Of a DNA stretch of 39,062 bases, positions 7,005 to 25,604 are shown piece by piece; position 1 is the first letter of the stretch; the number at the start of each line of letters is the position of its first letter. Made by a program: the position numbers and the translations under genes. The notes beneath the pieces were generated by a model, which was given only the letters and a program-made list of their open reading frames with translations, was not told the DNA's origin and searched no databases. The DNA is from a virus (lineage: Duplodnaviria > Caudoviricetes), in the IMG/VR virus record IMGVR_UViG_3300036768_000895, positions 1 through 39,062 of that record; one strand, written 5' to 3'.

Positions 7005-7007
7005 TCC

Positions 7008-10443: not shown

Positions 10444-13400
10444 ATGAGAAGGTGTTCCGAAGCGCACTGTGGCATGACGCCGGAGGAAATGGTGGCCCTG
10501 ATCGAGGCCGCACCGCCCGGCCCGTGGCCCGAAGGATGGCGCGGCTGGCCGTGCGTGTGCGAAGCGCATCGCATCATGTTCCGACGCGAAGCGCAGCGGG
10601 TCGCGGCGCTCGTCGATCCGCCGATGGACTGGCAGCAGCCGCGCGGCATCGTGACATGCGGCGGCGGCTTGAAATACTTCCCGGGCGTGTGGGTGCTGGC
10701 GCACGTGCTGCGCGACCTGGGGTGCACGCTGCCAATCCAAGTCTGGTATTTGGGCAGCGCGGAGATGGACCCGGGCATGGCGCGACTGTTGGAGCCGCTG
10801 GGCGTCGAGTGCGTGGACGCCTTCAAGGTCGCGGAGCAATACCCGGCCCGCATCTTGTGCGGTTTTGAGGTCAAAATCTACGCCACGCTGTTTTCGCCGT
10901 TCCAGGAGGTGCTGTTTCTGGACGCGGACAACCTGCCGAACCGCGACCCGTCGGACCTGTTTTCGTGGCCGCAATACCTGCGCACGGGCGCGGTATTCTG
11001 GCCCGATTATGCCTGCTGGAAGCTCAAGTCCGACGTGTGGCATATCTGGGGCATGGAAGACATCCTCGAAGACGTGATCGACGATACGGCCTTCGAGTCG
11101 GGGCAGTACCTGATCGACAAGCGCCGGGCCTGGCGCGAGCTGATGCTGAGCAAGTGGCTGGGCGATCATTCCGACTATGTTTTCGGCACGGTGTACGGCG
11201 ACAAGGAATGTTTTCACCTGGCCTGGCGACGGCTCGGGCGAGAATATGCCATGCCAAGATATGCGCCGGGCTGGGCGGGGCGGTGCTGCATTGTGCAGCA
11301 CGATTTCGATGGCAAGCCGATTTTTTTCCACCGCTGCCAGGACAAGTGGCGGCTGGATGGGCGCAATCGGCTAGAAGGACTGCCGCATGAGGACCGGGCC
11401 TTTGCGCTGCTCAAAGAGCTGCGGCAGAAGTGGTCGGGCGTCCCGTGGCGGAATAATCACCCGACGCCGCAGGAGCAGGAGGTGATCGCGCAGCTCCAGG
11501 GCAAGCGGTACATTTACCAGCGGGTCGGGCATGATCAGCGGGTGCTGGTGCTCGAAAAGGATCAGTGGATCACGGAAGGTTCGGCGGACTGTGAACGACG
11601 CTGGGACGTTCATATCGTGGACGGCGAGCCGGTGCTGACCATTTCGGCGTATGACGGGCCGACCTGCCACCTGCGCCGTGACGAAGTGGGCATTTGGCGC
11701 GGCCGATGGCTGCACCACGAGCGCATGCCGATTGTGCTGGCGCCGACTGACGTTTTCGGGACGTTGGCGTGGCTGCCCCCGCCCGACCCGGCCGCGCCAA
11801 TGACTGACGAGGAACGGGCCGTGTTTCAGTCGGTCGCGGGTCGGCGGCTGTTGTACGAGCGCGTGGGATACGACCAGCGCCCGATCAAGCTGGAGCCCGA
11901 CGGCACGATCAGCGAAGGGGCCGGCGGCATGGAACGCACCTGGCACGTCCGCATTGTCGATGGTGCGCCGGTGCTGACGATCACAGACGGCCTGCGTCCG
12001 ACGTGCCACCTGCGCCGTGGGGACGACGGCCGCTGGCGCGGCCAGTGGCTGCGGCATGAGCGGATGCCGATCCTGCTCAGTCCGATGGCGGACGACGGCC
12101 AGAGCGCATCATCGCCCCGGGAGGGCGAGAGCGCCCCATCGCCGCCCAGTGGTAACAGTGCGGAGTCGGCCGACGAGGAGGACGAGGACCCGGACGCAGA
12201 CGGGCGCGGCGACCTGGCCGCGCTGGTCACGGTCGCCGTCGTCAGTTTTCGCCGATTCGCCTGCCTGGTGGAGCTGCTGCGGTCGATTCGCGCCCACTAC
12301 CCGGACCTGCGCGTGATCGTGGCCGACCAGTCGGGGCCAGACGCCCAGACGGACGAGCGGGCGCAGTGGTGCCGCCGGCATCCGCAGGTGCAATGGATCG
12401 ACCTGCCCTACGACTGCGGACTGTCGGCTGCGCGCAACGCGGCCATCGCCCACGTGCGCACGCCGTACGTCTGGCTGATGGACGACGATTTCCGGGTTTT
12501 GCCATGCACGGACGCTGTGGCCGCGCTGCACCTGTTCCAGGAGGTGAGCGGGACCGAGATCGTCGCTGGTCCGCTGTACGACCTGGCCGCTGGCCGCATG
12601 ATCGACTGGGCGGCCATGCTCACCATCGAGCCCGGGACGCCGCCGGTCGTGAGCGCCAGCGCGCCCGGGCCGTGGCGGCGGTCGAAGCGAGGGGCGCTGT
12701 GGCGGCCCGTCGGCCGGTTCCTGAACTCGTTCATCGCGCGGACCCAGACGCTGCGGCGGGTGCCGTGGCGCCACGATCTGAAAATCCGCGGCGAGCATCG
12801 GGTGCACGTGGCCGACCTGGTGCGCCATCGCGTGCCCTGCATCGAAACGCCTGCCCTGACGCTGGCGCATCAAGCGCAGCGGCGCGGCGATGCGACCTAC
12901 CAGCAGATGCGCTCACGCCGCGACTGGTACGAAACGCCGCTGTATCGGTTCGCGGGCGATTGGAAGCTATCGGAGGACCCGGTGCCGCCTCCAGCCGTGG
13001 CGCATCCATGCCGCGGGGTCGTGGTGCTGACGCCTGGCCATACGGGCTCGCGTGTGGTGGCGCGTCTGCTTGATGCGCTGGGGTGGCGGATGCCGGAGCT
13101 GGACGTCGTGTTTGGCGAACCCGCCGACGTGCGCGCGGTCAATCAGCGCCTGCTGCGTGGCGAGCGCCTGCGAGGACAAGAGCTGCGCGCGCAGGTCGCG
13201 GCCTGGCCGCGGCCCTGGTGCATCAAGGACCCGCGGCTGTGCGAGACGCTCGACGCATGGCTGCCGGCGCTGGCCGATGATGCCCCGCTGCTCGTTGTCG
13301 TGGACCGCGACCTGAACGCCACCCGCGAAAGCTGGCGCCGTCGCGGCGAGGCATTGGAACGGCTTCAACGGCGGCTGGAGGGCGTCGGCTATCATTGGAC

Positions 13401-13512
13401 CTATTGGCCCTGGGAACGCCGCCGCGTGGCGTTTGAGGCCATCTGCGCGGCTTGGCAGCGTATTCCCGAGCCCGGGCGGGAAGGCGAGTCGATGAACAGT
13501 GGCCCCTCGTGA
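10444..13512 (+). CDS. Multidomain glycan-modifying enzyme: GT71/MNN2-like mannosyltransferase + 2 repeated domains + GT2 + sulfotransferase-like domain
   Basis: RGIV..GG, SPFQEVLFLDADN, GAVFWPDY, ESGQ, GDKE (Mannosyl_trans3-like); VTVAVVSF.R, IVADQS, GLSAARN, LMDDD (GT2); VVLTPGHTGS...WCIKDPRL (sulfotransferase-like). Confidence 0.8.
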   Translation: MRRCSEAHCGMTPEEMVALIEAAPPGPWPEGWRGWPCVCEAHRIMFRREAQRVAALVDPPMDWQQPRGIVTCGGGLKYFPGVWVLAHVLRDLGCTLPIQVWYLGSAEMDPGMARLLEPLGVECVDAFKVAEQYPARILCGFEVKIYATLFSPFQEVLFLDADNLPNRDPSDLFSWPQYLRTGAVFWPDYACWKLKSDVWHIWGMEDILEDVIDDTAFESGQYLIDKRRAWRELMLSKWLGDHSDYVFGTVYGDKECFHLAWRRLGREYAMPRYAPGWAGRCCIVQHDFDGKPIFFHRCQDKWRLDGRNRLEGLPHEDRAFALLKELRQKWSGVPWRNNHPTPQEQEVIAQLQGKRYIYQRVGHDQRVLVLEKDQWITEGSADCERRWDVHIVDGEPVLTISAYDGPTCHLRRDEVGIWRGRWLHHERMPIVLAPTDVFGTLAWLPPPDPAAPMTDEERAVFQSVAGRRLLYERVGYDQRPIKLEPDGTISEGAGGMERTWHVRIVDGAPVLTITDGLRPTCHLRRGDDGRWRGQWLRHERMPILLSPMADDGQSASSPREGESAPSPPSGNSAESADEEDEDPDADGRGDLAALVTVAVVSFRRFACLVELLRSIRAHYPDLRVIVADQSGPDAQTDERAQWCRRHPQVQWIDLPYDCGLSAARNAAIAHVRTPYVWLMDDDFRVLPCTDAVAALHLFQEVSGTEIVAGPLYDLAAGRMIDWAAMLTIEPGTPPVVSASAPGPWRRSKRGALWRPVGRFLNSFIARTQTLRRVPWRHDLKIRGEHRVHVADLVRHRVPCIETPALTLAHQAQRRGDATYQQMRSRRDWYETPLYRFAGDWKLSEDPVPPPAVAHPCRGVVVLTPGHTGSRVVARLLDALGWRMPELDVVFGEPADVRAVNQRLLRGERLRGQELRAQVAAWPRPWCIKDPRLCETLDAWLPALADDAPLLVVVDRDLNATRESWRRRGEALERLQRRLEGVGYHWTYWPWERRRVAFEAICAAWQRIPEPGREGESMNSGPS

Positions 13513-13519
13513 GGGAGTT

Positions 13520-14335
13520 ATGGACGACGCGCACCGAACCGACCGACAATCACTGGAGCAATTCGCGGCCGCGCGTGCCAAGGCCGTCGGCTACGGCGAC
13601 GGCGTGCTGTGCCGCGTCCTGGGCGATCTGTTGGCCATCGTGGACCCTGCGGACCTGACCGTCGGGCCGCGGCTGGCGATGGACGGGTATTGGGAGGCGT
13701 GGGTGACAGCCGCCCTGCTGCGGCACCTGCGCCCCGGGATGGCGTGCGTGGACGTAGGGGCGCACGTCGGATACTACACGCTGGCCATGGCGCGGGCCGT
13801 CGGCCCCGAAGGCCGCGTGCTGGCGGTCGAGCCGTACCCGGTCAGCGCGCATCGTCTGCGACAGAACCTGGCCCTGAACGGTTTGTCGTGGGTCGAGACG
13901 GCCCAGGTCGCCGCGTCAGACGCCGCAGGAACCGCCACCCTGCGCGTGCCGCGCTGCAACGTGGGCGGGGCATCGTTGCACCCTGCCGAAAGGCCGGACT
14001 ACGCCGAAGACTGCGAAGTCCCCACAATCGCGCTGGACGACCTGCTGGGAGAGTGGACCCAGCTCGATCTCGTGAAAGTCGATGTCGAGGGCTGGGAGGG
14101 CAAAGTCTGGCAAGGCACCGAGCGCCTGCGGCAGCGGTTCCCGGGGGCCGTGCTGGTCGTTGAGCTACACGTCGCCCTGGACCGGCGCGTGGTGGCGGAA
14201 TTGCTGCCGGAGATCGAGCGCTGCGGCTACGTGCTGCGGCACGTGCGGTACGACGGGACGGTTGCGCCGATCACCCCCGATGCGATCTTGTCCCGCCCGG
14301 AGAGCGGATGCACCCTGTGGCTGACGCGACGCTGA
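13520..14335 (+). CDS. FkbM-family SAM-dependent methyltransferase
   Basis: VDVGAHVGYYT, VLAVEP, LVKVDVEGWE motifs; RBS GAGGGAG before ATG 13520. Confidence 0.9.
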   Translation: MDDAHRTDRQSLEQFAAARAKAVGYGDGVLCRVLGDLLAIVDPADLTVGPRLAMDGYWEAWVTAALLRHLRPGMACVDVGAHVGYYTLAMARAVGPEGRVLAVEPYPVSAHRLRQNLALNGLSWVETAQVAASDAAGTATLRVPRCNVGGASLHPAERPDYAEDCEVPTIALDDLLGEWTQLDLVKVDVEGWEGKVWQGTERLRQRFPGAVLVVELHVALDRRVVAELLPEIERCGYVLRHVRYDGTVAPITPDAILSRPESGCTLWLTRR

Positions 14336-14348
14336 AGGGAACAGACCG

Positions 14349-14723
14349 ATGGCATGGATGCTGGCGGTGGTGGTGGCGGTGGCCGCGCACCCGGTCGATG
14401 ACGTGCTGCGCGATCGGGTTGACGTAATCGAACTCAATCATTTTTTTAACGACCACGGCGAGCTGATCTTCGATCAGCTCATCTTCTGGGACTGGTGCCC
14501 CGCCACGGGGCGGCTGAAGGTGCGGGCGTGGCGACTGGTCAAATCGGCCTGGCAGATTCCTGAGCGGGACTGGCGGCGCGGGGGCTGGTCGGCCCTGTGG
14601 CTGGATGGCGACCGGCTGCGGGCGGTTTATGCCGGGGCGTACCGCGAAACGTGGACGCAGTACGACCCAGAGCTTGAGGACCGCCGGCTGCATGACCCGA
14701 CGCAGCGGCGGAAGCTCCGCTGA
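14349..14723 (+). CDS. Small secreted hypothetical protein resembling a planctomycete-type family
   Basis: Signal-peptide-like N-terminus; VD.IE.NHF, FDQLIFWDW, VRAWRLVK, RETWTQYDPE motifs recalled from Pirellulales proteins (not searched). Confidence 0.65.
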   Translation: MAWMLAVVVAVAAHPVDDVLRDRVDVIELNHFFNDHGELIFDQLIFWDWCPATGRLKVRAWRLVKSAWQIPERDWRRGGWSALWLDGDRLRAVYAGAYRETWTQYDPELEDRRLHDPTQRRKLR

Positions 14724-14740
14724 CCGCCAAGGCCGCGGCC

Positions 14741-14938
14741 AGTCCCATTTTCCGAAGTGTCCACCCTCCAGGGCCGCGGATTTTTTTCGAGATTTTTTCC
14801 CCAAGGCCGGCCGCCGCTATTGACGAGTATTTGCCACGCGGTATAATAAAGGCGTCATCGGTGAGGGACCGATGACGGCAAGCCGCGGCCGACGCGGCGA
14901 CAATCAGCGGGCCGGTTAGACCGGCCGGGGAGGTTCCG
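14741..14938 (+). promoter_or_regulatory. Cassette leader copy 1 (conserved box, T-tracts, sigma70 promoter, 3 hairpins, RBS)
   Basis: TTGACG 14820-14825, 16-nt spacer, TATAAT 14842-14847; GGAGG before ATG 14939. Confidence 0.9.
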
Positions 14939-15211
14939 ATGGCGTTTACGACTGGCGAACTGCGGAAAGCTGTCAAGCGGGCGCGGCAAGAAATTGGGGC
15001 TCAGCCGCTGGTGGTGGCCAAAGGATCGTTGTCGATCCACCTGCTGCGGCGGCTGAAGCGCAACGCCAAGGGCGACGGCGACGGGTGGCGCGAGCTCGGC
15101 TACGCCGTCTGGTCGTGCGTGTCCCAGTCGTGGGTCTTTGGCGGGTGGGACTCGCCGGTGACGCTCCAGGAGGCCGCGCGTTACGTGTCGGAGGCCAGCT
15201 ACTACGCCTGA
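14939..15211 (+). CDS. Cassette 1 hypothetical protein (90 aa)
   Basis: Exactly fills the space between the leader RBS and the pseudoknot element. Confidence 0.75.
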   Translation: MAFTTGELRKAVKRARQEIGAQPLVVAKGSLSIHLLRRLKRNAKGDGDGWRELGYAVWSCVSQSWVFGGWDSPVTLQEAARYVSEASYYA

Positions 15212-15219
15212 TGGCGGCG

Positions 15220-15292
15220 GCCGCCGCCGTGTGCCCCCGAGCGGCGGCGGCGAGTGCTCTATCGGGGGCGTTTCCGGCGCACGCAGCGCCGG
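15220..15292 (+). repeat. Post-gene pseudoknot element copy 1 (+ hairpin)
   Basis: GCCGCCGCCG/CGGCGGCGGC stem; loop GCCCCCGA complementary to TCGGGGGC 15262-15269; CCGGCGC/GCGCCGG hairpin. Confidence 0.85.
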
Positions 15293-15315
15293 GCATTGGG
15301 GCCTGGACGGCGACC

Positions 15316-15512
15316 AGTCCCATTTTCCCAAGTGTCCACCTTCCCGGGGCCGCGGATTTTTTTCGAGATTTTTTCCCCAAGGTCAGCCGCGGCTCTTGAC
15401 GAGTATTTATCCTGCGGTATAATTAAGGCGTCATCGGTGAGGGACCGATGGCGGCGGCCGCGGCCGACGCGGCGACAATCAGCGGGCCGGCAAGGCCGGC
15501 CGGGAGGTTACG
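15316..15512 (+). promoter_or_regulatory. Cassette leader copy 2
   Basis: TTGACG 15396-15401, TATAAT 15418-15423, same hairpins and RBS. Confidence 0.9.
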
Positions 15513-15905
15513 ATGAGCGGCGACGAACTGATTCGGAAGGTTTGCGACTTGGCGGTTGCCGGGAAGGGCTCCCCCAAGGACGGGGGCATCACGATGCGGG
15601 GCGACGGGCCGCAGTTTCCGCGGGGCCTGGTCCATACGCGGTACGAGCATATCGTCCACCGCCGCGTTTGGCGGGATGGACAATGGGTGCCGATTTCGAC
15701 GCGCAAGCGCAATCGCTTTGACCGCGTCCATGCGGGGGAGCTGGTCATCGAGTGGGTCGATAACTGGGCGATCCAGACGGCCTATTTGATTCTGGGCTCG
15801 TTCACCCCGGGCTTCCGCAAGTTGGAAGTCCGGGACCATGGTGATCTGCTGTCGATCTATTTGCCGGACGGGCGGGTCGTCGTCCGACCGGGGCCGCGGG
15901 CGTAA
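15513..15905 (+). CDS. VWR-GE-LPDG family paralog 1 (130 aa)
   Basis: RRVWRDGQW...AGELV...TAYL...LPDGRVVVRP. Confidence 0.8.
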   Translation: MSGDELIRKVCDLAVAGKGSPKDGGITMRGDGPQFPRGLVHTRYEHIVHRRVWRDGQWVPISTRKRNRFDRVHAGELVIEWVDNWAIQTAYLILGSFTPGFRKLEVRDHGDLLSIYLPDGRVVVRPGPRA

Positions 15906-15912
15906 CTAGTAC

Positions 15913-15985
15913 GCCGCCGCCGTGTGCCCCCGAGCGGCGGCGGCGAGTGCTCTATCGGGGGCGCTTCCGGCGCGCGGAGCGCCGG
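15913..15985 (+). repeat. Pseudoknot element copy 2 (+ hairpin)
   Basis: Same stem and loop; TCGGGGGC at 15955-15962. Confidence 0.85.
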
Positions 15986-15988
15986 GTG

Positions 15989-16152
15989 ACGGCTGGTCCC
16001 CTTTTGCGAGTGCAGCACGCCCACGGACGACCGCGTGGAGGCGCCAACGCGACCGTGGGGGAGGTCCGGGAGGGGAGGAGCTCGGGGCGGGAATTGACCC
16101 GCAGTGGGGCGGCGGTGCCCAGCATCGCTGCCCCACGGGCCGGCTGTTTTTT
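15989..16152 (+). ncRNA. Candidate structured RNA, copy A
   Basis: Homologous to 20188-20355 with compensatory changes; closing stem followed by a T-tract. Confidence 0.55.
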
Positions 16153-16160
16153 CATAGACC

Positions 16161-16358
16161 AGTCCCATTTTCCCAAGTGTCCACCTTCCGGGTCCGCGGA
16201 TTTTTTTCCAAGATTTTTCGCCCAAGGTCGGCCTCGGCTCTTGACGACTATTTGTCCTGCCGTATAATAAAGGCGTCATCGGTGAGGGACCGATGGCGGC
16301 GGCCGCGGCCGACGCGGCGAAAGATCAGCGGGCCGGCAGGGCCGGCCGGGAGGTTGCG
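16161..16358 (+). promoter_or_regulatory. Cassette leader copy 3
   Basis: TTGACG 16241-16246, TATAAT 16263-16268. Confidence 0.9.
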
Positions 16359-16703
16359 ATGAACCGGGTACTGACAAGCGAGAATGCTGAGGCGTGCCGC
16401 GCGGCCGCGAACGGGACGCCATTTGGGCGCCCGCACTGGGAGGCGACGGCGGGCAACGACCGCTGGCGGGGAAGCTGGTATTTGCTAGTGTGGCGCGACG
16501 GCCGCTGGCAGCGCTTCGAGCATTCCCTGGACCGCGTCTGGCCGGGCGAGGTCATGCTTTACGTCGAGCAGCAGCAGCTCGCGATGGCCTACGTCGCCCT
16601 GCGGGACGCCGTGGTGCAAATTGAGTTCTCCCAGAGCGGCCCGGTCGTCCTGCAATTGCCCGACGGAACAGCGCTGACGCGGCCCCTGCCTGCTCTGGAC
16701 TAG
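16359..16703 (+). CDS. VWR-GE-LPDG family paralog 2 (114 aa)
   Basis: LVWRDGRW...WPGEVM...MAYV...LPDGTALTRP; ATG follows GGAGG. Confidence 0.8.
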   Translation: MNRVLTSENAEACRAAANGTPFGRPHWEATAGNDRWRGSWYLLVWRDGRWQRFEHSLDRVWPGEVMLYVEQQQLAMAYVALRDAVVQIEFSQSGPVVLQLPDGTALTRPLPALD

Positions 16704-16712
16704 TCTTCCCCT

Positions 16713-16763
16713 GCCGACGCCGTGTGCCCCCGAGCGGCGGCGGCAGCGCTGAGCTATCGGGGG
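16713..16763 (+). repeat. Pseudoknot element copy 3 (subtype with GCGCTGAGCTA linker)
   Basis: Stem with one mismatch, invariant loop, TCGGGGG at 16757-16763. Confidence 0.8.
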
Positions 16764-16793
16764 ATTTTCTTTTGCACACAAGGCCGCGCGCTT

Positions 16794-16835
16794 GTCGCGG
16801 CTGGGGACTGCCGCCCCCAGCCGCGACCGTTTCTT
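16794..16835 (+). terminator. Intrinsic terminator-like hairpin, copy 1
   Basis: GTCGCGGCTGGGG/CCCCAGCCGCGAC 13-bp stem then TTTCTT; repeated at 17461. Confidence 0.6.
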
Positions 16836-16840
16836 GCGCG

Positions 16841-17033
16841 CCCCATTTTCCCAAGTGTCCACCTTCCCGGGCCGCGGTTTTTTCGACATTTTTCGACCCA
16901 TGGCGGCCGCGGCTCTTGACTAGTATTTATCCTGCGGTATAATTTGGGCGTCATCGGTGAGGGACCGATGGCGGCGGCCGCGGCCGACGCGGCGACAATC
17001 AGCGGGCCGGCAGGGCCGGCCGGGGAGGGTGAG
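16841..17033 (+). promoter_or_regulatory. Cassette leader copy 4
   Basis: TTGACT 16916-16921, TATAAT 16938-16943. Confidence 0.9.
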
Positions 17034-17429
17034 ATGAACGAGACAGCGACGGCGGGAATCCCGGAAGACGTGCTGGTGGCGTGCGAGATTGCGGGGGCCG
17101 ACGCGGCGCCGGTGGGCGACCAAGTCATCATCACAGGCTGCGGGCACCTGAAATACGGGCGCGTTGGCGAATCCCCCACGCGCTGGTATCGGTACGTGTG
17201 GCGCGACGGCCGCTGGGTAAAGGTCGCCCGCACGCTGCGGCAGGCGGTCGGGCCGGTGCGCCCGGGCGAAGTGCTGGTCGATGTAGTCGAGCGCCGGCCG
17301 ATTTCGGCCGGTTGTCTGGTGACCGCGAAGGGCTTCGTTCAGCTCTTCGTGCGTGAGGCCAGCCCCAATACGATCTACGTGTACCTGCCGGACGGGCAGA
17401 TTCTCATTCGTCCGAACCCGCGGAAGTAA
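17034..17429 (+). CDS. VWR-GE-LPDG family paralog 3 (131 aa)
   Basis: YVWRDGRW...RPGEVL...LPDGQILIRP. Confidence 0.8.
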   Translation: MNETATAGIPEDVLVACEIAGADAAPVGDQVIITGCGHLKYGRVGESPTRWYRYVWRDGRWVKVARTLRQAVGPVRPGEVLVDVVERRPISAGCLVTAKGFVQLFVREASPNTIYVYLPDGQILIRPNPRK

Positions 17430-17460
17430 TTCCGGGTGCGGCCGCACCGCGGGCCGTCTG

Positions 17461-17499
17461 GTCGCGGCTGGGGACTGCCGCCCCCAGCCGCGATTCTTT
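17461..17499 (+). terminator. Intrinsic terminator-like hairpin, copy 2
   Basis: Same sequence as the 16794 hairpin; lies between convergent genes. Confidence 0.6.
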
Positions 17500-17519
17500 G
17501 CGCGATGCGCCCCCAGTCC

Positions 17520-17744
17520 CTAGGACACCAAATCGGCGGGCTCGCACCCGATGGCGGCAGCGACCGACGCGAGCCTAGAAAGGCTGGGCAGCGTCCGGCC
17601 GCGCTCGAAGGCGGACCATGCCGCGGCCGTGATCCCGGCACGCGCGGCCGCTTCCTGGAGTGTGAGCCCGGCGGCCAGGCGGCGTTCGCGCAGGCGCTCA
17701 CCCAGTATCTGGTGCAGGCGTGATGGGTATTTGGGCGGCGGCAC
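17520..17744 (-). CDS. Xre/Cro-family HTH regulator (candidate repressor)
   Basis: GERLRERRLAAGLTLQEAAARAGI...WSAFERGRTLPSL..L..VA.A.G; GTG start inferred from the promoter position. Confidence 0.85.
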   Translation of the reverse strand: MPPPKYPSRLHQILGERLRERRLAAGLTLQEAAARAGITAAAWSAFERGRTLPSLSRLASVAAAIGCEPADLVS

Positions 17745-17771
17745 CTGGCGCCCGCCGACGCCCAGTCTCGG

Positions 17772-17800
17772 ATTATGCGGTCGAAAGTGGTGCTGTGCAA
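17772..17800 (-). promoter_or_regulatory. Sigma70-like promoter for the HTH gene
   Basis: Minus strand TTGCAC-17 nt-CATAAT. Confidence 0.65.
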
Positions 17801-17883
17801 TCATCTTACGCTGCATTGTAGCGCCCGCCCATCGGAACGTGGACCGGTTGCCCCAGCCTGCCCTAGGCTGAGGTGGCAAAGTG

Positions 17884-17912
17884 CGCAACTTCCGACTGCT
17901 GCGGAAGTTGCG
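17884..17912 (-). terminator. Hairpin downstream of tRNA fragment
   Basis: CGCAACTTCCG/CGGAAGTTGCG perfect 11-bp stem. Confidence 0.55.
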
Positions 17913-17921
17913 ATTCGCCAA

Positions 17922-17970
17922 GGTGGAGACGACCGGGATCGAACCGGCAACCCCAGCCTTGCAAAGGCTG
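17922..17970 (-). other. tRNA-Ala(TGC) 3' fragment, probable attP core
   Basis: Minus strand CAGCC TTTGCAA GGCTG (anticodon arm), GCCGG TTCGATC CCGGT (T arm), CGTCTCC-A-CC acceptor 3' strand with U70; no 5' acceptor strand or complete D arm. Confidence 0.8.
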
Positions 17971-17980
17971 TGGCGCTCGT

Positions 17981-18176
17981 GTCCCATTTCCCAAGTGTCC
18001 ATCTTCCTAGGTCCCCGGATTTTTTCGGCAATTTTCGCCCAAGGTCGGCCGAGTCTCTTGACGACTATTTATCCGGCGGTATAATAAAGGCGTCATCGGT
18101 GAGGGACCGATGGCGGCGGCCGCGGCCGACGCGGCGAAAGATCAGCGGGCCGGCAGCGCCGGCCGGGGAGGTTCCG
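17981..18176 (+). promoter_or_regulatory. Cassette leader copy 5
   Basis: TTGACG 18058-18063, TATAAT 18080-18085. Confidence 0.9.
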
Positions 18177-18545
18177 ATGGTCGAGATTATCCGGCAATTG
18201 TGCGACGTGGCGGTGCGTGAGGGCGACCCGGTGGGCGGGTCGATCTACATGCTGGCCTGGAGCGAGTGCCCGGGCGAAGATTGGCAGCGCCGGGTATGGC
18301 GCCATCGGCGGTGGCGCCAGTTCGCCTTCGGCGACGATCCGATGGGCTGGCTTCGTGCGGGCGAAGTCGTGGTCGAGTTCGTCGCTGATCTCCCGATCAA
18401 GACGGCCTATCTGGTCACGGGCGAAGTGGCCAACGGCTACATCCGTCTGGAGGCGCGGCAGACGGAGTCGGGGACGGTCAAAATCGACCTGCCGGACGGG
18501 CGCGTGATTGAGCGCCCCGACCCGCGGGACTGGTGGCGGGACTGA
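18177..18545 (+). CDS. VWR-GE-LPDG family paralog 4 (122 aa)
   Basis: RRVWRHRRW...RAGEVV...TAYLV...LPDGRVIERP. Confidence 0.8.
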   Translation: MVEIIRQLCDVAVREGDPVGGSIYMLAWSECPGEDWQRRVWRHRRWRQFAFGDDPMGWLRAGEVVVEFVADLPIKTAYLVTGEVANGYIRLEARQTESGTVKIDLPDGRVIERPDPRDWWRD

Positions 18546-18572
18546 TCGCCCCGGCGGCAATGACCGCCAACG

Positions 18573-18645
18573 GCCGCCGCCGTGTGCCCCCGAGCGGCGG
18601 CGGCCAGTGCTCTGTCGGGGGCGCTTCCGGCGCGCGGAGCGCCGG
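18573..18645 (+). repeat. Pseudoknot element copy 4 (+ hairpin)
   Basis: TCGGGGGC at 18615-18622. Confidence 0.85.
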
Positions 18646-18696
18646 GCCTCGTCACGTAATCACAGCGGGCCGGCAGGGCCGGCCGGGGAGGGAGCA

Positions 18697-19059
18697 ATGA
18701 ACGAGATCAGGTTTGACCTATCATCGGTGCCTTTCGCGTGGGTGGTGCATGCCGCGCGCCTGCGTGGGCGCGTGCTGGCGTGCGAAGACGTCAGCGACCC
18801 GGGCGCCGAGCTTGTGCTGCTGCGGCGGTTCGACCCGCCGATCAAGATCAAGCGCAGCGGGTCGGGCCGGGTGAACGAACAGTTTGCCCGGCGGCTGCGC
18901 GTCAACGTAATCGTTGAGGGTATGGGCGACGGCCAGGTCGTCGTCCGTGCCAGCCCGCGCAACCTGCGGGCCATCCAGGCCACCCTGCGCGACAAGGCCG
19001 AGTGGCAGCAGTTTCTCGAATCGTCGCGGCAGCCGCGGCAGCCGGGCCAGACGTGCTGA
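18697..19059 (+). CDS. Cassette hypothetical protein (120 aa), promoterless short leader
   Basis: Preceded by GTCACGTAATCACAGCG, the leader's third hairpin and an RBS. Confidence 0.7.
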   Translation: MNEIRFDLSSVPFAWVVHAARLRGRVLACEDVSDPGAELVLLRRFDPPIKIKRSGSGRVNEQFARRLRVNVIVEGMGDGQVVVRASPRNLRAIQATLRDKAEWQQFLESSRQPRQPGQTC

Positions 19060-19067
19060 CGGTAGGG

Positions 19068-19141
19068 GCCGCCGCCGTGTGCCCCCGAGCGGCGGCGGTT
19101 CAGCGGGCCATCGGGGGCGTTTCCGGCGCACGCAGCGCCGG
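19068..19141 (+). repeat. Pseudoknot element copy 5 (+ hairpin)
   Basis: Different linker but TCGGGGGC retained at 19111-19118. Confidence 0.85.
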
Positions 19142-19183
19142 GCCTTGTCACGTAATCACAGCGGGCCGGCCGGGGAGGTTTCG

Positions 19184-19537
19184 ATGGTCGAGGTTATCCG
19201 TGAGCTGTGCGACATCGCCTGGACCGAAGGCGATCCTGTCTGCGCGTCGGTGCCCATGCTTGGATTTGTGGACGTGACCACAACGTACGAACGCCGGGTA
19301 TGGCGCCGTGGGCGGTGGCGGGAGTTCGCCTCCGGCGATAACCCAGTCGGACGAGTGCGCGCCGGTGAAATCGTCATCGAGTACACGGAGGGCGCCCCCG
19401 TGACTACCGCGTATCTGATCACGGGCGAGGTCGCTTGTGGCTACATCCGTCTGGAGGCGCGGCAGACGGAGTCGGGGACGGTCAAAATCGACCTGCCGGA
19501 CGGGCGCGTGATTGAGCGCCCCGACCCGCGGGACTGA
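19184..19537 (+). CDS. VWR-GE-LPDG family paralog 5 (117 aa)
   Basis: RRVWRRGRW...RAGEIV...TAYLI...LPDGRVIERP; close paralog of the 18177 gene. Confidence 0.8.
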   Translation: MVEVIRELCDIAWTEGDPVCASVPMLGFVDVTTTYERRVWRRGRWREFASGDNPVGRVRAGEIVIEYTEGAPVTTAYLITGEVACGYIRLEARQTESGTVKIDLPDGRVIERPDPRD

Positions 19538-19545
19538 TCGCCGCG

Positions 19546-19618
19546 GCCGCCGCCGTGTGCCCCCGAGCGGCGGCGGCCAGTGTTCTATCGGGGGCGGTTC
19601 CGGCGCACGCAGCGCCGG
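19546..19618 (+). repeat. Pseudoknot element copy 6 (+ hairpin)
   Basis: TCGGGGGC at 19588-19595. Confidence 0.85.
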
Positions 19619-19641
19619 GCATTGGGGCCTGGACGGCGACC

Positions 19642-19838
19642 AGTCCCATTTTCCCAAGTGTCCACCTTCCCGGGGCCGCGGATTTTTTTCGAGATTTTTT
19701 CCCCAAGGTCGGCCGCGGCTATTGACGACTATTTATCCGGCGGTATAATTAAGGCGTCATCGGTGAGGGACCGATGGCGGTGGCCGCGGCCGACGCGGCG
19801 GAAATCAGCGGGCCGGGAAGACCGGCCGGGAGGGTCCG
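19642..19838 (+). promoter_or_regulatory. Cassette leader copy 6
   Basis: TTGACG 19722-19727, TATAAT 19744-19749. Confidence 0.9.
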
Positions 19839-20099
19839 ATGAACGACAATCGCACGCTTGATCAGGTCCTGTATGCTCGGGGGAGCGCCCTGCCGAAGGG
19901 TTGGCGCTGGGGGGCGCAGTTTTCCATCCGCGGCGGAGCAATCGCGGGGCACTACGCTATCCGTGAAAGCGATGGGTTTTCGGTCATGGTCGCCGAGTCC
20001 GGCGAATCGGACGCCCCGAGCCCGGCGGCCGCGATTCGGGCCGCCATCGCCGACGGCGTGATTCCGCGGGCGCAGCGGCGGGCCCGGGCGCAGCAGTAA
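19839..20099 (+). CDS. Cassette hypothetical protein (86 aa)
   Basis: Fills the leader-to-pseudoknot slot. Confidence 0.75.
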   Translation: MNDNRTLDQVLYARGSALPKGWRWGAQFSIRGGAIAGHYAIRESDGFSVMVAESGESDAPSPAAAIRAAIADGVIPRAQRRARAQQ

Positions 20100-20109
20100 G
20101 CGGGCCGCG

Positions 20110-20182
20110 GCCGCCGCCGTGTGCCCCCGAGCGGCGGCGGCCAATGCTTGATCGGGGGCGCTTCCGGCGCGCGGAGCGCCGG
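20110..20182 (+). repeat. Pseudoknot element copy 7 (+ hairpin)
   Basis: TCGGGGGC at 20152-20159. Confidence 0.85.
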
Positions 20183-20187
20183 GCAAA

Positions 20188-20355
20188 GGTCGGTCCCCCT
20201 TCCTGCGAGTGCAGCAAGCCTGCGGACGACCACGCTGAGGCGCCAGCGTGACCGTGGGTGAGGTCCCGGAGAGGCCGGAGCCGGGGCGCGGGAATCGACC
20301 CGCAGTGGGGCGGCGGCGTGCGCGTTGCCTAACCCCTAGGGGCCGACCGTTTTTT
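20188..20355 (+). ncRNA. Candidate structured RNA, copy B
   Basis: Homolog of 15989-16152; GGTCGGTCCC/GGGGCCGACC closing stem then T6. Confidence 0.55.
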
Positions 20356-20370
20356 CTAGGAGCTACGACG

Positions 20371-20856
20371 ATGAAAGAGGATCGCAAATGCCCTACATGC
20401 GGGGCGCAGTGGACCGTGGAGATCGAACGTGTCCGGGGCGATTCCGTGCCGAGCCCGGACGAAATGGGCACGCGCATCCAGTCGTGGACGGTCGAGCGCG
20501 TGGTCGATGGCACGCCGTGCGATTGTGCCCGGCGTGCCGAAGAGGATGCGGCGCGCCGGGCCAAAGAGTCGCGCGAAGCGGCTGCCCAGCGCCAACGCGA
20601 TGCTGCCGCCCTGTATCGCGAGCTGATGAGCTATGGCGGTCCGCTGCCAGAGGACACGCCGATGCGGCTGCCCGACTACGACTGGGGCGGCTGGAGCGAC
20701 CCGCGGCCGCTCGGGCGGTTTTCGTCGCGCTTCTGGACGTGGCATGGCGATCTGTACTACGTATCGCCCAGCGAGCAAACCGCGGTCAAATTGGACCGCG
20801 GCGCGAAGCTCATTGACGGCGAGCTGCGGGTGTCCGACCCGTGGCTGCTGATGTAG
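20371..20856 (+). CDS. Hypothetical protein with CxxC...CxC (possible Zn ribbon), 161 aa
   Basis: AGGAG RBS, MKEDRKCPTCG...PCDC. Confidence 0.7.
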   Translation: MKEDRKCPTCGAQWTVEIERVRGDSVPSPDEMGTRIQSWTVERVVDGTPCDCARRAEEDAARRAKESREAAAQRQRDAAALYRELMSYGGPLPEDTPMRLPDYDWGGWSDPRPLGRFSSRFWTWHGDLYYVSPSEQTAVKLDRGAKLIDGELRVSDPWLLM

Positions 20857-20864
20857 TCTTCCCC

Positions 20865-20917
20865 CGCCTTCGCCGTGTGCCCCCGAGCGGCGATGGCGGC
20901 GCTGAGCTATCGGGGGC
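20865..20917 (+). repeat. Pseudoknot element copy 8
   Basis: Altered stem CGCC-T-TCGCCG/CGGCGA-T-GGCG still pairs; TCGGGGGC at 20910-20917. Confidence 0.8.
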
Positions 20918-20957
20918 GCTGTGGGCGGGCGCACCGCCCAGAGGATTGCCAGCGCAC

Positions 20958-21010
20958 GTGCTGGCTGAGCTGCTGTCGCTAGTGCCCCAGGACGCCTTGC
21001 ACCGCACGCG
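20958..21010 (+). pseudogene. Remnant of the C-terminus of a 22329-23093-like gene
   Basis: VLAELLSLVPQDAL matches LLAEILALVPQDAL at ~22932-22973. Confidence 0.6.
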
Positions 21011-21035
21011 CGGCCGGCGTCGGGGCTTTGATATT

Positions 21036-21542
21036 ATGTGGCAAGAAAGCTTCATTAAGAACGACACGGCAGTTCTTTCGCGGGCTGATGTTCAGCACCA
21101 GGCGAACGCCGAGTTCCTGCGTCGGGCTGCCGCTATGGCTGTCAGCCGTAAACACCCGTCGGGGGATGCGCATTCGATGTATTCGATTCGCGCTGCGTTC
21201 AAACATTACAGCCTCCGCGACAACTGCCATGAACACTGGGCGCGGGCGGTGTGGCGTCCGCACTGCGGGCGCTGGCGGTGGCAGTATTTCGGCCATCGCT
21301 CATTGGCCGTCAACAAGCGGAAAGATTACGTCCTGGGCGTCGTCTGGCCCGGCGAACTCATAGCACAGTATGAGTTCACGGGCCTTCTTACGGGCCCAGC
21401 AACTGTCACAGCCGCGCTTCTTGTGCTTGAAAACGGTCTTCTGTGCCCGTTGCGATTTATCTCGCGACGGCCCGAGTTGCGTGTTCAGTTGCCGGGAGGG
21501 AGAGTTCTTGTCCTGCCGGCCGTCCGCACGAAATGGAGCTAG
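21036..21542 (+). CDS. VWR-GE-LPDG family paralog 6, divergent (start uncertain)
   Basis: RAVWRPHCGRW...WPGELI...AALLV...LPGGRVLVLP. Confidence 0.65.
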   Translation: MWQESFIKNDTAVLSRADVQHQANAEFLRRAAAMAVSRKHPSGDAHSMYSIRAAFKHYSLRDNCHEHWARAVWRPHCGRWRWQYFGHRSLAVNKRKDYVLGVVWPGELIAQYEFTGLLTGPATVTAALLVLENGLLCPLRFISRRPELRVQLPGGRVLVLPAVRTKWS

Positions 21543-21544
21543 GC

Positions 21545-22192
21545 ATGAAACACCTGACAACACGAAACGCGGCTGAAAAGTATCTGCGGGAGCTGCTCGG
21601 CCCGTATCATCGGGCCATTGAGGCGCTGCTCAAAGAAACAGCACCCGACCGTCACGCGCGGCGCGTGATCGCCGCACGGGAAGCGGCGAGGGCGTGGGTT
21701 ATCGCCCATCACGGGCAAGGCTTGTCGCAGCCGCTTAGCGATGAGGTGTTAGCGGCCTACACCAACGCTGTTTTGATCGCCGAGTGCTTTGGCGTCGGCG
21801 GGCGGGACGGCGTATCCGGGGCCAGCACCACGCGGCATCCTGCTTTCGTCGCGCTCGGCCGCGGCAGGAAGCACGCTGCCGACGGCGCCGCGTGGGACGC
21901 CGCCATCCGCGATGCCGTCGATTCGTCCCCTGGCCATTTTCGGCCCGGCGGCAGTGGCACCACGTCGCTGTTTTTCGAGGCAGGGCCTATCCTGATTTGC
22001 CCCGGAGCGGCGATTATCCCGCATGCCTGGCAGCGCACAATCGCGCGCGAAGGCTTGCGCCGATCTGTCGGCCTTGACCCGTGGTTCCCGGAGCTGGTCG
22101 GCTACGTGCTGGCCAACCAAGACAATTGCGCGGATTGGGCGCGCGTGGTTGAATACCTTGAGCTCAGCACCGGTGCCACCGGTGGCAAATAA
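21545..22192 (+). CDS. Hypothetical protein (215 aa)
   Basis: ATG 2 nt after the upstream stop; ends at pseudoknot copy 9. Confidence 0.65.
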   Translation: MKHLTTRNAAEKYLRELLGPYHRAIEALLKETAPDRHARRVIAAREAARAWVIAHHGQGLSQPLSDEVLAAYTNAVLIAECFGVGGRDGVSGASTTRHPAFVALGRGRKHAADGAAWDAAIRDAVDSSPGHFRPGGSGTTSLFFEAGPILICPGAAIIPHAWQRTIAREGLRRSVGLDPWFPELVGYVLANQDNCADWARVVEYLELSTGATGGK

Positions 22193-22240
22193 CCGCCGTG
22201 TGCCCCCGAGCGGCGGCGGTAGCGCTGAGCTATCGGGGGC
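22192..22240 (+). repeat. Pseudoknot element copy 9
   Basis: Shortened stem, invariant loop, TCGGGGGC at 22233-22240. Confidence 0.8.
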
Positions 22241-22328
22241 GCTGTGGGCGGGCGGACCGCCCAGACGATCACCAGCCCAGGTGCTGGCGGCGCGCCGGCT
22301 TGGCCGAGACGACCGGAGGAGTGTTGCC

Positions 22329-23093
22329 ATGTGTGCAGTCGTTAAAGTGACCGTTCAGAGGACGGCGGACTGGGTGCGTGCGCGGCGGATCGAAACCGGC
22401 GCGAATGTGCCCGAACGGATCGAGGTTGCGGTGCCCGTGGATCAGCTCCCGCGCGAAGTGCGGGAGCTGCTGATCGAGGCGGGCGGCGGGAAGTATCCAT
22501 CGGATTTCGCGGGCGATTTTCGGCAAGACTTCCGGTGGATGTATCGCTCCGATTTGCGGTACGGGCGCGTGCCGATCATCCTGGACGTTGACCAGCCGAC
22601 GCCCGCGGAGATTGCCGCGGCGATTCTGGCTGCCGACGCGGAGCGCCGGCGGATGAAGAGTGAGGCGGAGGAAAAGGCCCGCCAGATTGCCCAGCGAGAA
22701 CGGGCCCGTGCCGAAGAGTGGGCGCGGCTGCCGCTACAGCAGCGGGCCAGCGCGGCGGGCGTGTGCGTCGCCCGCGACCCGCAGACTGGCGCCATGAGCG
22801 CTTGCGGTGCGCAAGTGTACGATGTGTCGGCGCTGCGGAAGTACGTTCCCGAGGCGCTAAACGAAGCGATGCGCGAAGTCGAGCGGCTGCGCGAGATTGA
22901 GCGCGGCAAAGAAGCGATCCAGCATCGCGCGCTGCTGGCTGAGATACTGGCGCTGGTGCCGCAGGACGCGCTGCGGCACGCGCTGAAACTGGCGGCCGCC
23001 AGCGGAATCGGCGGCAAGCCGGCGCCCATCGAGGACGTGCGGCGGCAAGTCCGAAAGGCGTGTGAAGCGGGCGGCGTCGAGGTGACGCTGTAG
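22329..23093 (+). CDS. Hypothetical protein (254 aa) with coiled-coil-like segment
   Basis: GGAGGAG RBS before ATG 22329. Confidence 0.7.
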   Translation: MCAVVKVTVQRTADWVRARRIETGANVPERIEVAVPVDQLPREVRELLIEAGGGKYPSDFAGDFRQDFRWMYRSDLRYGRVPIILDVDQPTPAEIAAAILAADAERRRMKSEAEEKARQIAQRERARAEEWARLPLQQRASAAGVCVARDPQTGAMSACGAQVYDVSALRKYVPEALNEAMREVERLREIERGKEAIQHRALLAEILALVPQDALRHALKLAAASGIGGKPAPIEDVRRQVRKACEAGGVEVTL

Positions 23094-23186
23094 GCCGCGT
23101 GGCGTTTCTTGCGAGGCGGCCGCTGCGCGAGCGAGCGGCGGCCGCCGTATCGGGAGCGAGTGAGCAGGGCGAACGGAGTCGGCCGA

Positions 23187-24020
23187 ATGCGTCGCAAGCT
23201 GTGTGCATTTCCGTATTTCGGGGGCAAGTGGTACCAGCTCAAGGATATTCTGCCCCTGCTGCCTGACTGCCACCATTACGTCGAGCCGTTCTGCGGGTCG
23301 GCGGCGGTGCTCATCAACCGGCCGCCCGCACCTATCGAAACCGCCAACGACATCAACGAGGACCTGGTAACGTTCTTTCGCGTCTTGCGGGAGCAGCCGG
23401 ACGCGCTCGTGGAAGCGCTGCGGCTGACGCCGTACGCCCGCGCCGAGTTGTGGGACTCGCACGCCGAAATCCTCGACGATTTACCGCCGGTGGAGCGGGC
23501 CCGGCGGTTTTTCGTGCGCACCATGCAGACGCGCTCCGGGCTGGGCGGCGGCGGCCGATACCGGAACTCGTGGAGCTACGGCGTGACAAGGTCGCCGGTT
23601 TCAAGGTGGCTGTCGCATGTGGAGTCGCTGCACAAGCTGGCCAAGCGACTGCGGCGAGTGCAAATCGAGTGTCGCGACGCGCTCGACGTGATCGCGGCGT
23701 ATGACGCACCTGGGACGCTGTTTTTCGTTGATCCGCCGTATGCGTTCGATGCGCGCGAAGACAAGTCACGCAACGTGTATGCGGTCGAGTTCACGGACCA
23801 GTGCCATCGAAAGCTCGCCGACGTATTGGGTCGCGTGGCGGCCAAAGTGGCGCTGACCACGTACGAGTCTCCGCTGATGCGCGCGCTGTACCCAGAGGAC
23901 CGCTGGCAGTGGATCGAATGCGGACGGAATGTCGTCTATGCCAGTTCGGACCGGAGCAAGCCGCGCAAATCCGAGTTCCTTGTGACGAACTACCCGCCGC
24001 CGCAGCGATTGCTCGTATGA
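23187..24020 (+). CDS. DNA adenine methyltransferase (Dam/D12 class)
   Basis: FPYFGGK, YVEPFCGSAAV, NDIN, FFVDPPY, EFLVTNY motifs. Confidence 0.92.
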   Translation: MRRKLCAFPYFGGKWYQLKDILPLLPDCHHYVEPFCGSAAVLINRPPAPIETANDINEDLVTFFRVLREQPDALVEALRLTPYARAELWDSHAEILDDLPPVERARRFFVRTMQTRSGLGGGGRYRNSWSYGVTRSPVSRWLSHVESLHKLAKRLRRVQIECRDALDVIAAYDAPGTLFFVDPPYAFDAREDKSRNVYAVEFTDQCHRKLADVLGRVAAKVALTTYESPLMRALYPEDRWQWIECGRNVVYASSDRSKPRKSEFLVTNYPPPQRLLV

Positions 24021-24106
24021 CGGCGCGACGCGGTACGATCCACCAAAGCGGCGCGCGGCGAAAGTACGCGGGCCGCGCAGCGGATACGTGGACCTGCGGT
24101 CGGAGC

Positions 24107-24135
24107 TTGCACCAGAATATGACCCGCTGTATAAT
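24107..24135 (+). promoter_or_regulatory. Sigma70-like promoter
   Basis: TTGCAC-17 nt-TATAAT in an intergenic gap. Confidence 0.7.
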
Positions 24136-24188
24136 CCGCTGGGCGGCGTGGGCTGCCCGTTTCGCATGTCATTATGGGAGGCGCTGGG

Positions 24189-25145
24189 ATGACGCTGTAT
24201 GTAATCTTTGGTGCGCCGGACCCGGAGGCGCAGGCGGCCAGGGAGCTGTGCGAGTCGTGCCGCGTGTCGTACGGTCAGGCCGTGTCGTTTCTGACGAGTC
24301 GCGACGTTTCGGCCGCCGACGCCTACGAGGCGGAAAACTGGCGGTCGCAATTTGGGTTGCCGCTGCGGGCGGGGTCGCGCGTCCTGCTGTTCGAGTGTGA
24401 CGGGGACGGGCTCCGCAAACATTTTCCAGCAGGATGTTATGCCGTGCGGCTAGACCATCATCGGCCGCTTGACCGCGGCTGGGGCAAGCCGCCGGCCGAG
24501 TTCTGGCCGGCATCGTCGCTGGGGCAATTGGTCGCCGAACTGGCCCGGGACGGCTTGCTGAAAGGCGAAGGGCCAGAGGCGGGCGACCTGAAACCTGGCA
24601 CCAGCGTCTGGGACGCGCCGAGCGCGACGTGGCGCGTCGCCACGCGGCAGCGCACGTGGTGGACCGTCCCGACCGATTACGTGCTCGCGGCAGCCGCCGA
24701 TCATTGTCTGGCGGCGGCTTACCGGGGGGAGTGCCCGGGCGTCGAGCCCGACCAGCTCATGGCCTGGCGGATCAAGTCGCGGGCGGAGTTCCAGGGACGG
24801 CCGGTTGAGGCGCTCATGGCGGACGTGGAGCGAGCCCGCGAGGCGTTGCGCCAGGCCCCCAAGATTGACCTGGGCGGCGAGCTGGTGGCCGACCTGCGAG
24901 GCCAGGTCGTGCCGGAGCTCCCGGAGGCGGCCGCCCGGGAAGGCGTTGCGTTTCTGGCCACGCCGCCCGTGCGGGCCGGCGAGCGGCGAAAGGTGGTCTT
25001 GCAGTGCGCTGGCCCGGCGGCCCTGACCGCGTGGCGCCCATGGGCGATTGCGCAGGGGCTGGTGGACCTGTACGGCGGCGACGCCAGCCGCGGTTTTGCT
25101 GGAGGATATATCCCAGATGGCCAAACGGGCAAAACACAAGCCTGA
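24189..25145 (+). CDS. Hypothetical protein, possible DHH-family phosphoesterase
   Basis: GAPDPE, LLFECD, RLDHHRP, AADH, C-terminal GG...RGFAGG; GGGAGG RBS. Confidence 0.5.
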   Translation: MTLYVIFGAPDPEAQAARELCESCRVSYGQAVSFLTSRDVSAADAYEAENWRSQFGLPLRAGSRVLLFECDGDGLRKHFPAGCYAVRLDHHRPLDRGWGKPPAEFWPASSLGQLVAELARDGLLKGEGPEAGDLKPGTSVWDAPSATWRVATRQRTWWTVPTDYVLAAAADHCLAAAYRGECPGVEPDQLMAWRIKSRAEFQGRPVEALMADVERAREALRQAPKIDLGGELVADLRGQVVPELPEAAAREGVAFLATPPVRAGERRKVVLQCAGPAALTAWRPWAIAQGLVDLYGGDASRGFAGGYIPDGQTGKTQA

Positions 25146-25416: not shown

Positions 25417-25460
25417 GCGATTGCCGGGCGACTGCCTCGTTTTCGTCGTGGCAGTTCCGC

Positions 25461-25488
25461 TTGACGAGTTTCAAGTAAAAGGTAAGAT
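25461..25488 (+). promoter_or_regulatory. Sigma70-like promoter upstream of recombinase
   Basis: TTGACG-16 nt-TAAGAT. Confidence 0.6.
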
Positions 25489-25604
25489 GTAGGACACAGG
25501 AGGACCACGAAGGACCATGGCGGGGCAGCGGCGCATGGACGGTAGGCATGAGGCCAGATCAAACAGCCGCGCCCGTCTTTTCGCGCGGGGATCGGGAGTG
25601 ACAG

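Follow-up and report, generated by a model that had tools for sequence, protein, structure and literature searches.

Does an array of small phage genes set between repeated RNA-like elements serve as a platform on which the genes are exchanged, and by what means? The question arises from positions 14,741 to 23,093 of the window, the 39,062-nucleotide (nt) IMG/VR virus record IMGVR_UViG_3300036768_000895, taken here at its full length. The record is circular with a 127-nt terminal repeat and corresponds to a 39-kb tailed phage. Comparison with two sister phages, the complete genomes G001 (37,953 nt) and G002 (33,272 nt), revealed seven differences in gene content, six of which are bounded by the repeats of the array. 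The locus is probably a variable early accessory region in which whole genes are lost, swapped or gained mostly at the repeats, likely through homologous recombination. Cassette exchange at RNA-type repeats, a known logic with new parts in a new host phylum, is a well-supported description of it.

The array covers about 8 kb and holds twelve plus-strand open reading frames (ORFs) of 86-254 amino acids (aa), six of them paralogs (B1 to B6). With P for a promoter-leader, PK for a pseudoknot element, X for element X, T for a terminator-like hairpin, s for a short leader and HTH for a helix-turn-helix gene, the units of the first half are ordered P1-A-PK-P2-B1-PK-X-P3-B2-PK-T1-P4-B3-T2-(HTH, antisense)-attP, and those of the second half P5-B4-PK-s-C-PK-s-B5-PK-P6-D-PK-X-E-PK-B6-F-PK-G. 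Positions in the window are as follows; RBS denotes a ribosome-binding site.

14742-14938, plus strand: leader P1, with upstream motif, T-tracts, promoter (14820-14847), three hairpins and RBS
14939-15211, plus strand: cargo A, 90 aa, no family, missing in both sister genomes
15220-15293, plus strand: PK1, predicted H-type pseudoknot and 3′ hairpin
15317-15512, plus strand: leader P2
15513-15905, plus strand: cargo B1, 130 aa, B paralog family
15913-15986, plus strand: PK2
15988-16152, plus strand: element X copy 1, predicted multibranch RNA of ~165 nt with a long-range closing helix, then a U-tract
16162-16358, plus strand: leader P3
16359-16703, plus strand: cargo B2, 114 aa, B paralog
16713-16763, plus strand: PK3, without 3′ hairpin
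16794-16827, plus strand: terminator-like hairpin T1, behind B2
16841-17033, plus strand: leader P4
17034-17429, plus strand: cargo B3, 131 aa, B paralog, no PK behind
17460-17494, no strand assigned: hairpin T2, likely terminator, between the convergent B3 and HTH genes
17520-17804, minus strand: XRE-type HTH gene, 94 aa, likely prophage repressor (HTH_31, E 2e-14)
17923-17972, minus strand: putative attP core, whose 50 nt match the 3′ part of tRNA-Ala(TGC) in two Pirellulales genomes without a mismatch
17981-18176, plus strand: leader P5
18177-18545, plus strand: cargo B4, 122 aa, B paralog
18573-18646, plus strand: PK4
18659-18696, plus strand: short promoterless leader (hairpin and RBS), before C
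18697-19059, plus strand: cargo C, 120 aa, no family
19068-19142, plus strand: PK5
19155-19183, plus strand: short promoterless leader, before B5
19184-19537, plus strand: cargo B5, 117 aa, 67% identical to B4
19546-19619, plus strand: PK6
19643-19838, plus strand: leader P6
19839-20099, plus strand: cargo D, 86 aa, retained in the window, G001 and G002
20110-20183, plus strand: PK7
20189-20355, plus strand: element X copy 2
20371-20856, plus strand: cargo E, 161 aa; G001 has an unrelated gene of 217 aa at this place
20866-20941, plus strand: PK8
21036-21542, plus strand: cargo B6, 168 aa, the most divergent of the B paralogs
21545-22192, plus strand: cargo F, 215 aa
22193-22264, plus strand: PK9; a C5 methylase gene is inserted before this copy in G001
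22329-23093, plus strand: cargo G, 254 aa, retained in the window, G001 and G002

An earlier note on this DNA had described six leaders with near-consensus sigma70 promoters, nine pseudoknot elements, about twelve small ORFs with a paralog family, a near-identical PK-linker-leader block and two genes behind a truncated promoterless leader. These descriptions held, the pseudoknots as predictions, and the block proved identical at 286 of 300 bases (15208-15507 versus 19534-19833). The two copies of element X, the terminator-like hairpins, the antisense XRE gene and the attP inside the array come in addition to that account.

The differences between the sisters locate the exchange points. G001 lacks A, with the joint lying in the leader, and B4, with the joint in the hairpin-RBS part common to full and short leaders; its 217-aa gene in the place of E sits between element X plus a short leader and a PK, and its additional 322-aa C5 methylase has a decayed PK (E 0.003) on one side and an intact copy on the other. 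G002 lacks B4-C-B5, and the single leader left there carries P5 alleles on the left and P6 alleles on the right, switching near the −35 box. It also lacks B6-F, where the remaining pseudoknot has PK8 alleles to the left and PK9 alleles to the right of the invariant core, and the stretch from A to most of B3 (14765-17309), where the joint starts in the leader upstream motif. The repeats, their positions, the differences that they bound and the chimeric repeats at two joints can be read directly from the three genomes. The repeats had been proposed to act as exchange points, and repeat-mediated exchange is indeed very probable. The leader promoter regions (six from the window and five from G001) form two groups by genome (support 96/95), with a mean identity of 86-87% within a genome and 80% between genomes; grouping by genome rather than by position indicates repeated exchange among the copies, that is, concerted evolution. 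Crossovers between copies would delete, insert and homogenise cassettes while genes stay unbroken and each keeps its RBS.

Near-identical repeats in a mixed phage population might have generated the array or its variants as assembly artefacts. Sequencing runs X1 and X2, which may be the source of the window, do hold several related phages, and no contig from them spans the whole array. G001, however, is a separate record that is collinear with the window through the array, and the X1/X2 contigs cover 30 of 30 array bins, with exact pieces across several repeat borders; misassembly is therefore unlikely. The deleted form was also obtained with a different assembler: all three G002 joints lie in long contigs of runs X3 and X4 at a depth of 54, and two of them (18037>19702 and 20870>22194) in one 27.6-kb contig, with little or no cover of the DNA that both joints skip. 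X3 and X4 are of equal size and probably one data set, possibly the source of G002. The repeat copies, moreover, differ by 5-24% and cluster by genome, and an artefact is the least probable of the alternatives that we considered. In low-depth X1/X2 contigs (14300-23300) the end of element X leads into a short leader with C-like or D-like genes behind it, a weak hint of further cassette combinations in co-occurring phages.

Several facts weigh against exchange at repeats as the whole story. The comparison rests on only three closely related genomes. One of the seven differences, the G002 deletion 14765-17309, ends within gene B3 where there is no repeat. The earlier note had asked for relatives to be compared in both content and order; content varies, and the shared genes stand in the same order in the window, G001 and G002, so that the three genomes show no reshuffling. 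Exact-pattern scans of viral and metagenome contigs found G001 and G002 as the sole further carriers of the repeats, and models of the PK and of element X retrieved nothing convincing in 27 sources besides these two and the window. Candidate carriers L007, L011 and L015 turned out to be chance matches in unrelated coding DNA, and matches in G120:C19 were chance hits inside an insertion sequence. A loose PK pattern gave 73 matches, among which a stem 1 of >5 bp was formed in those from G001 and G002 only.

Integrons (attI/attC, IntI) are arrays of single-gene units with variable content, and the array had been likened to one. The tyrosine integrase, or another phage enzyme, would then recombine folded single-stranded PK as attC-like sites. 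The integrase gene lies 2.5 kb downstream of the array:

25605-26588, plus strand: tyrosine integrase, outside the array, absent in G001 and frameshifted in G002

The PK core is invariant, the PK8/PK9 crossover falls within it, and the element folds as a single strand, all of which would fit. The integrase, however, is explained by the tRNA-Ala attP with which it travels; both are missing in G001, which still differs in four cassettes. Crossovers also occur in leaders and short leaders, G-U pairs in the PK indicate RNA, and the gene order is fixed. Unlike an integron, the array repeats a promoter for each cassette, its crossovers lie in long homologies, and its order is conserved. The integrase had no IntI match in Pfam or NCBIfam, and no attC structure was recognised in the array, no attC-model search having been made. 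We therefore regard an integron-like mechanism as improbable. Homologous recombination is the favoured engine because joints lie in three repeat types and persist in the integrase-less G001.

The host-takeover region of SPO1, a large lytic Bacillus phage, has clustered strong repeated early promoters, structured leaders and small genes; it is not known to have 3′ pseudoknots or cassette exchange. Repeated intergenic units with exchange have been described elsewhere. PeSL cassettes of T4-type phages, in the parts of the papers covered, have demonstrated promoter and terminator activity and form mini-circles (PMC2839356, PMC4122927). In these parts they resemble the array in a repeated intergenic unit placed before orphan genes, with a consensus sigma70 promoter, AT-rich upstream tract, stem-loop and RBS, and in sister phages that differ by the genes between two units and retain one chimeric unit. 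The array differs from the PeSL cassettes so described in belonging to a 39-kb, likely temperate Planctomycetota phage (Mu-like portal, integrase, attP) rather than a T4-type myovirus, in having longer units of three kinds (leader, 3′ pseudoknot and element X) and in placing its hairpins in the transcribed leader. Its pseudoknot would be a second, promoter-free exchange point and likely no terminator, and the array is known from its sequence whereas promoter activity and mini-circles have been shown for PeSL. Given the other phage type, the other parts and the doubtful terminator role, the array appears to work like PeSL cassettes without being one of them. As a mechanism the system is therefore not undescribed, contrary to what had been suggested, since the PeSL cassettes do likewise as far as the source was covered (PMC2839356). 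The Class I/II intergenic repeats of halovirus HF2, in the text covered (PMC8707807), share repeated intergenic promoters, genes of unknown function and a truncated tRNA attP; they differ in having archaeal TATA promoters and a length of 29-58 bp, with no pseudoknot in that text. No description of the pseudoknot-cassette combination was found in the literature searched, supplements excluded. The array thus presents PeSL-like exchange, with its crossover footprints, far from the T4 phages and in a host phylum with little-known phages.

What the repeats do as RNA was addressed unit by unit. The six leaders are ~197 nt long and consist of a conserved upstream motif, two T-tracts (~20-45 nt upstream of the −35 box), a promoter, three hairpins and a GGAGG-type RBS; the genes at 18697 and 19184 have only the 3′ hairpin-RBS part. 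The promoters read TTGAC[G/T]-16-TATAAT, match the consensus at 11 of 12 positions and lie at 14820, 15396, 16241, 16916, 18058 and 19722. Eight promoter-like sites were counted in 13000-26000, compared with 1.3 ± 1.2 in shuffled sequences. Host sigma70 polymerase would fire these six promoters right after infection or induction, and the early mRNAs would begin with a 10-bp hairpin. One pair covaries in leader hairpin 3. As a point against the cassette model, none does so in hairpins 1 and 2, which vary nowhere, not even in their loops; the invariance could reflect sequence recognition or recent gene conversion.

Directly downstream of each start site lies a 19-bp palindrome, and all 12 of 12 leaders share it without change even in the loop. 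The repeats may accordingly be read as DNA control sites, with the palindrome and upstream motif as XRE operators, the PK as a terminator and gene loss as a by-product. Temperate phages have scattered operators. An XRE gene and attP stand in the middle of the array, and a prophage must silence six strong promoters. The palindrome was not found, however, at the repressor or integrase promoter with up to 2 mismatches; the PK has no U-tract, and five genes without a promoter lie behind copies of it; and stem 1 and hairpin 3 covary. Control sites of this kind are unlikely as the overall explanation, and there is at best a modest chance that the palindrome is an XRE operator. Such a role is compatible with recombination at the repeats.

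The nine PK copies share an invariant core and stand behind stop codons, seven of them at a distance of 7-10 nt and the remaining two at 0 and ~28 nt. A copy comprises a stem 1 of up to 10 bp, a loop of 3 nt and a strand of 8 nt whose possible pairing partner lies 10-12 nt behind stem 1; a 7-bp 3′ hairpin comes last and is absent from PK3. A strict H-type scan (stems 1 and 2 of at least 7 bp each) of the whole window gave nine matches on the plus strand, of which eight lie in the array, and the minus strand had no match; 30 shuffles of 14700-23100 gave no match (21 times) or one match (9 times), and the copy at 16713 is missed through one mismatch. Covariation was assessed in 17 copies from the three genomes, which are related to each other, and 97% of the alignment cells pair. 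Five of the ten pairs of stem 1 and three of the seven pairs of the 3′ hairpin are changed on both sides, with G-U intermediates present. This covariation, among related copies, exceeds 500 of 500 shuffles and all slid controls, and supports an RNA structure for stem 1 and the 3′ hairpin. The claim that the repeats are RNA elements is upheld for these two helices. In stem 2 none of eight pairs covaries: six are invariant and two have one unpaired cell each. Likewise unfavourable to the pseudoknot, the nested fold outscores the summed stems in 2 of the 17 copies, loop penalties of the pseudoknot being excluded. Both strands of stem 2 are 99% conserved, compared with 61% for the loop between them, so pairing is favoured without proof, and we hold stem 2 to be quite probably real.

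Seven to ten nucleotides behind the stop is also where viral read-through signals lie, and with this spacing in seven of nine copies and two long stems, the PK might recode translation by stop-codon read-through. We rejected this role because the copies share neither a frame nor an extension peptide: all three frames occur, and the extensions run from 1 to >80 residues. The spacings of 0 and ~28 nt in the other two copies also disagree with it, and read-through is very improbable. The PK may instead be an exonuclease barrier, stabilising the mRNA and dividing it into sections. A terminator is less likely, since five promoterless genes (C, B5, E, B6 and G) lie directly downstream of a PK and since separate terminator-like hairpins exist behind B2 and B3. 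We give the barrier role an even chance; a true nuclease barrier would make the PK a compact, GC-rich mRNA stabiliser and would account for the recurrence of elements of this sort between accessory genes of phages.

Rfam 15, searched over the whole window at E ≤1, matched a tRNA fragment only, and the leaders, PK and element X were unmatched. Ribozyme topologies (HDV-type, pistol and others) do not fit the 12-nt stem 1 loop. The PK core has 10-12 nt of complementarity to the CRISPR repeat of contig L027, and a tracrRNA-mimic reading was dropped with this match treated as chance; the repeat was not found in 11 family genomes, and its four spacers match none of the three phages. L027 is a phage contig whose end (6721-7040) is a CRISPR array with repeats of 36 nt and spacers of 30 nt, probably a host array joined to it as a chimera. 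An unrelated large phage (L001, 10001-10040) carries the 18-nt PK core and stem 2 partner before a tRNA-Ser gene; stem 1 has just 3 bp there, and the site is likely due to chance. Behind gene G, a hairpin at 23114-23179 weakly fits the PK model (E 0.43) and is perhaps a decayed tenth copy.

The two window copies of element X fold at z scores of −3.6 and −2.0, and across five copies covariation is seen at 9 of 54 predicted pairs. One of its hairpin loops contains an invariant self-complementary hexamer, possibly a kissing loop, which may be due to chance. Element X was not found in 101 Pirellulales genomes. Leader, PK and element X amount to three uncatalogued RNA modules with natural variation enough for testing.

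Adapting the phage to the defences of its host may be what the cargo does, and the methylase that G001 has gained points that way. The best PADLOC match of this C5 methylase is DrmMII (PDLC02654, E 8e-90), which it resembles over the full length, except that it stands alone in a phage cassette: drmABC and drmE are absent from that cassette, so it falls outside DISARM class II. Two of the 11 genomes searched from the candidate host family encode homologs with 50-55% identity. A role against DISARM is disfavoured on two counts: no other DISARM gene was detected (E 1e-15) among 16 long ORFs near the two host-family methylases, and DISARM still blocks DrmMII-methylated phage according to the part covered of a review (PMC10286901). 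Shielding from ordinary restriction is thus the likelier use, and from its sequence the methylase would likely protect G001 from host restriction. An earlier proposal of counter-defence cargo is partly supported, this gene being the only cargo of known function; in the window none of the twelve proteins matches Pfam, NCBIfam or PADLOC. Cargo E is the only one of the twelve with a PHROG match, a weak one. That none of the twelve has been assigned a function also counts against the proposal, and counter-defence as the main cargo role is conceivable but somewhat doubtful.

The B paralogs are 25-67% identical to each other, and a profile search at E ≤0.001 gave 100 cluster representatives, a few of which are long repeat proteins that match the C-terminal motif only. 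No member was found in the 11 candidate-host-family and 401 phylum genomes searched. The AlphaFold model of B4 is confident (pLDDT 94); models of the family had no Foldseek match at E 0.001, the best VIA Z scores of B models were 4.1 and 3.5, and Atlas scores were <0.9. No PDB sequence match was found for the family, no PHROG match among 59 members and no Pfam match above cut-off among 23 members. The missing fold match is not proof of a new fold. Two distant B-family loci are single genes without such an array, a point against the cassette model. The cargo provides a short list of likely counter-defence genes, including the B family, whose ~100 clusters have a confident structure model that matches no fold. 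A bolder joint reading would make the PK a general, undescribed phage RNA punctuation that guards mRNA ends and offers a promoter-free docking site for host-gene capture, element X a new phage small RNA excised from early mRNA, and the B paralogs, six in number here, a growing family of counter-defence proteins whose fold is new; taken together this is possible yet doubtful.

A distant B-family gene on a 70-kb phage contig (L240, 6459-7197) is followed by decayed CRISPR-like hairpin repeats. Before B6, a 51-nt piece (20959-21009) is 78% like the 3′ part of gene G (22933-22983), and G001 carries a strong RBS at this place. Cargo G had no usable Atlas match; its 77% identical homolog P0030 is encoded on a 164-kb contig, possibly an integrated prophage.

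Family searches identified a large terminase, Mu-type portal, RusA, Dam-type methylase and the tyrosine integrase in the window, and the sequencing runs that contain it come from microbial mats and hot springs. Relatives of the gene preceding the array lie at 76 genome loci, of which 71 are titled Planctomycetota, mostly Pirellulaceae. The tRNA fragment of the array matches 8 of 401 Pirellulales genomes at ≤3 mismatches, 2 of them exactly, and the shared 50-nt core covers tRNA-Ala(TGC) from the anticodon stem onward to its 3′ end. We infer that this core is attP and that the host is a member of the Pirellulales; the phage is likely temperate and likely infects planctomycete bacteria. With attP inside the array and 7.6 kb from the integrase, integration would split the cassettes. 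Both attP and integrase are intact in the window; G002 keeps attP and has a 146-nt frameshifting deletion in the integrase; G001 lacks both and retains the repressor-like gene, so that one lineage shows three lifestyles by the state of attP and integrase. A prophage fragment in G083 has head genes 42-62% identical to those of the window and is without the array region.

Behind the Dam-type methylase, a 318-aa gene (24189-25145) contains a DHH tripeptide in a setting that we take to recall DHH phosphoesterases; Pfam, NCBIfam and PDB sequence searches gave no support. CTGCAG is strongly avoided in the window, G001 and G002 (1, 1 and 2 seen versus 9-12 expected), which may hint at a host restriction site. 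Upstream of the array, at 10444-14335, a glycosyltransferase of 1022 aa with mannosyltransferase-3 and GT2 domains adjoins the structural genes, as does an FkbM methyltransferase.

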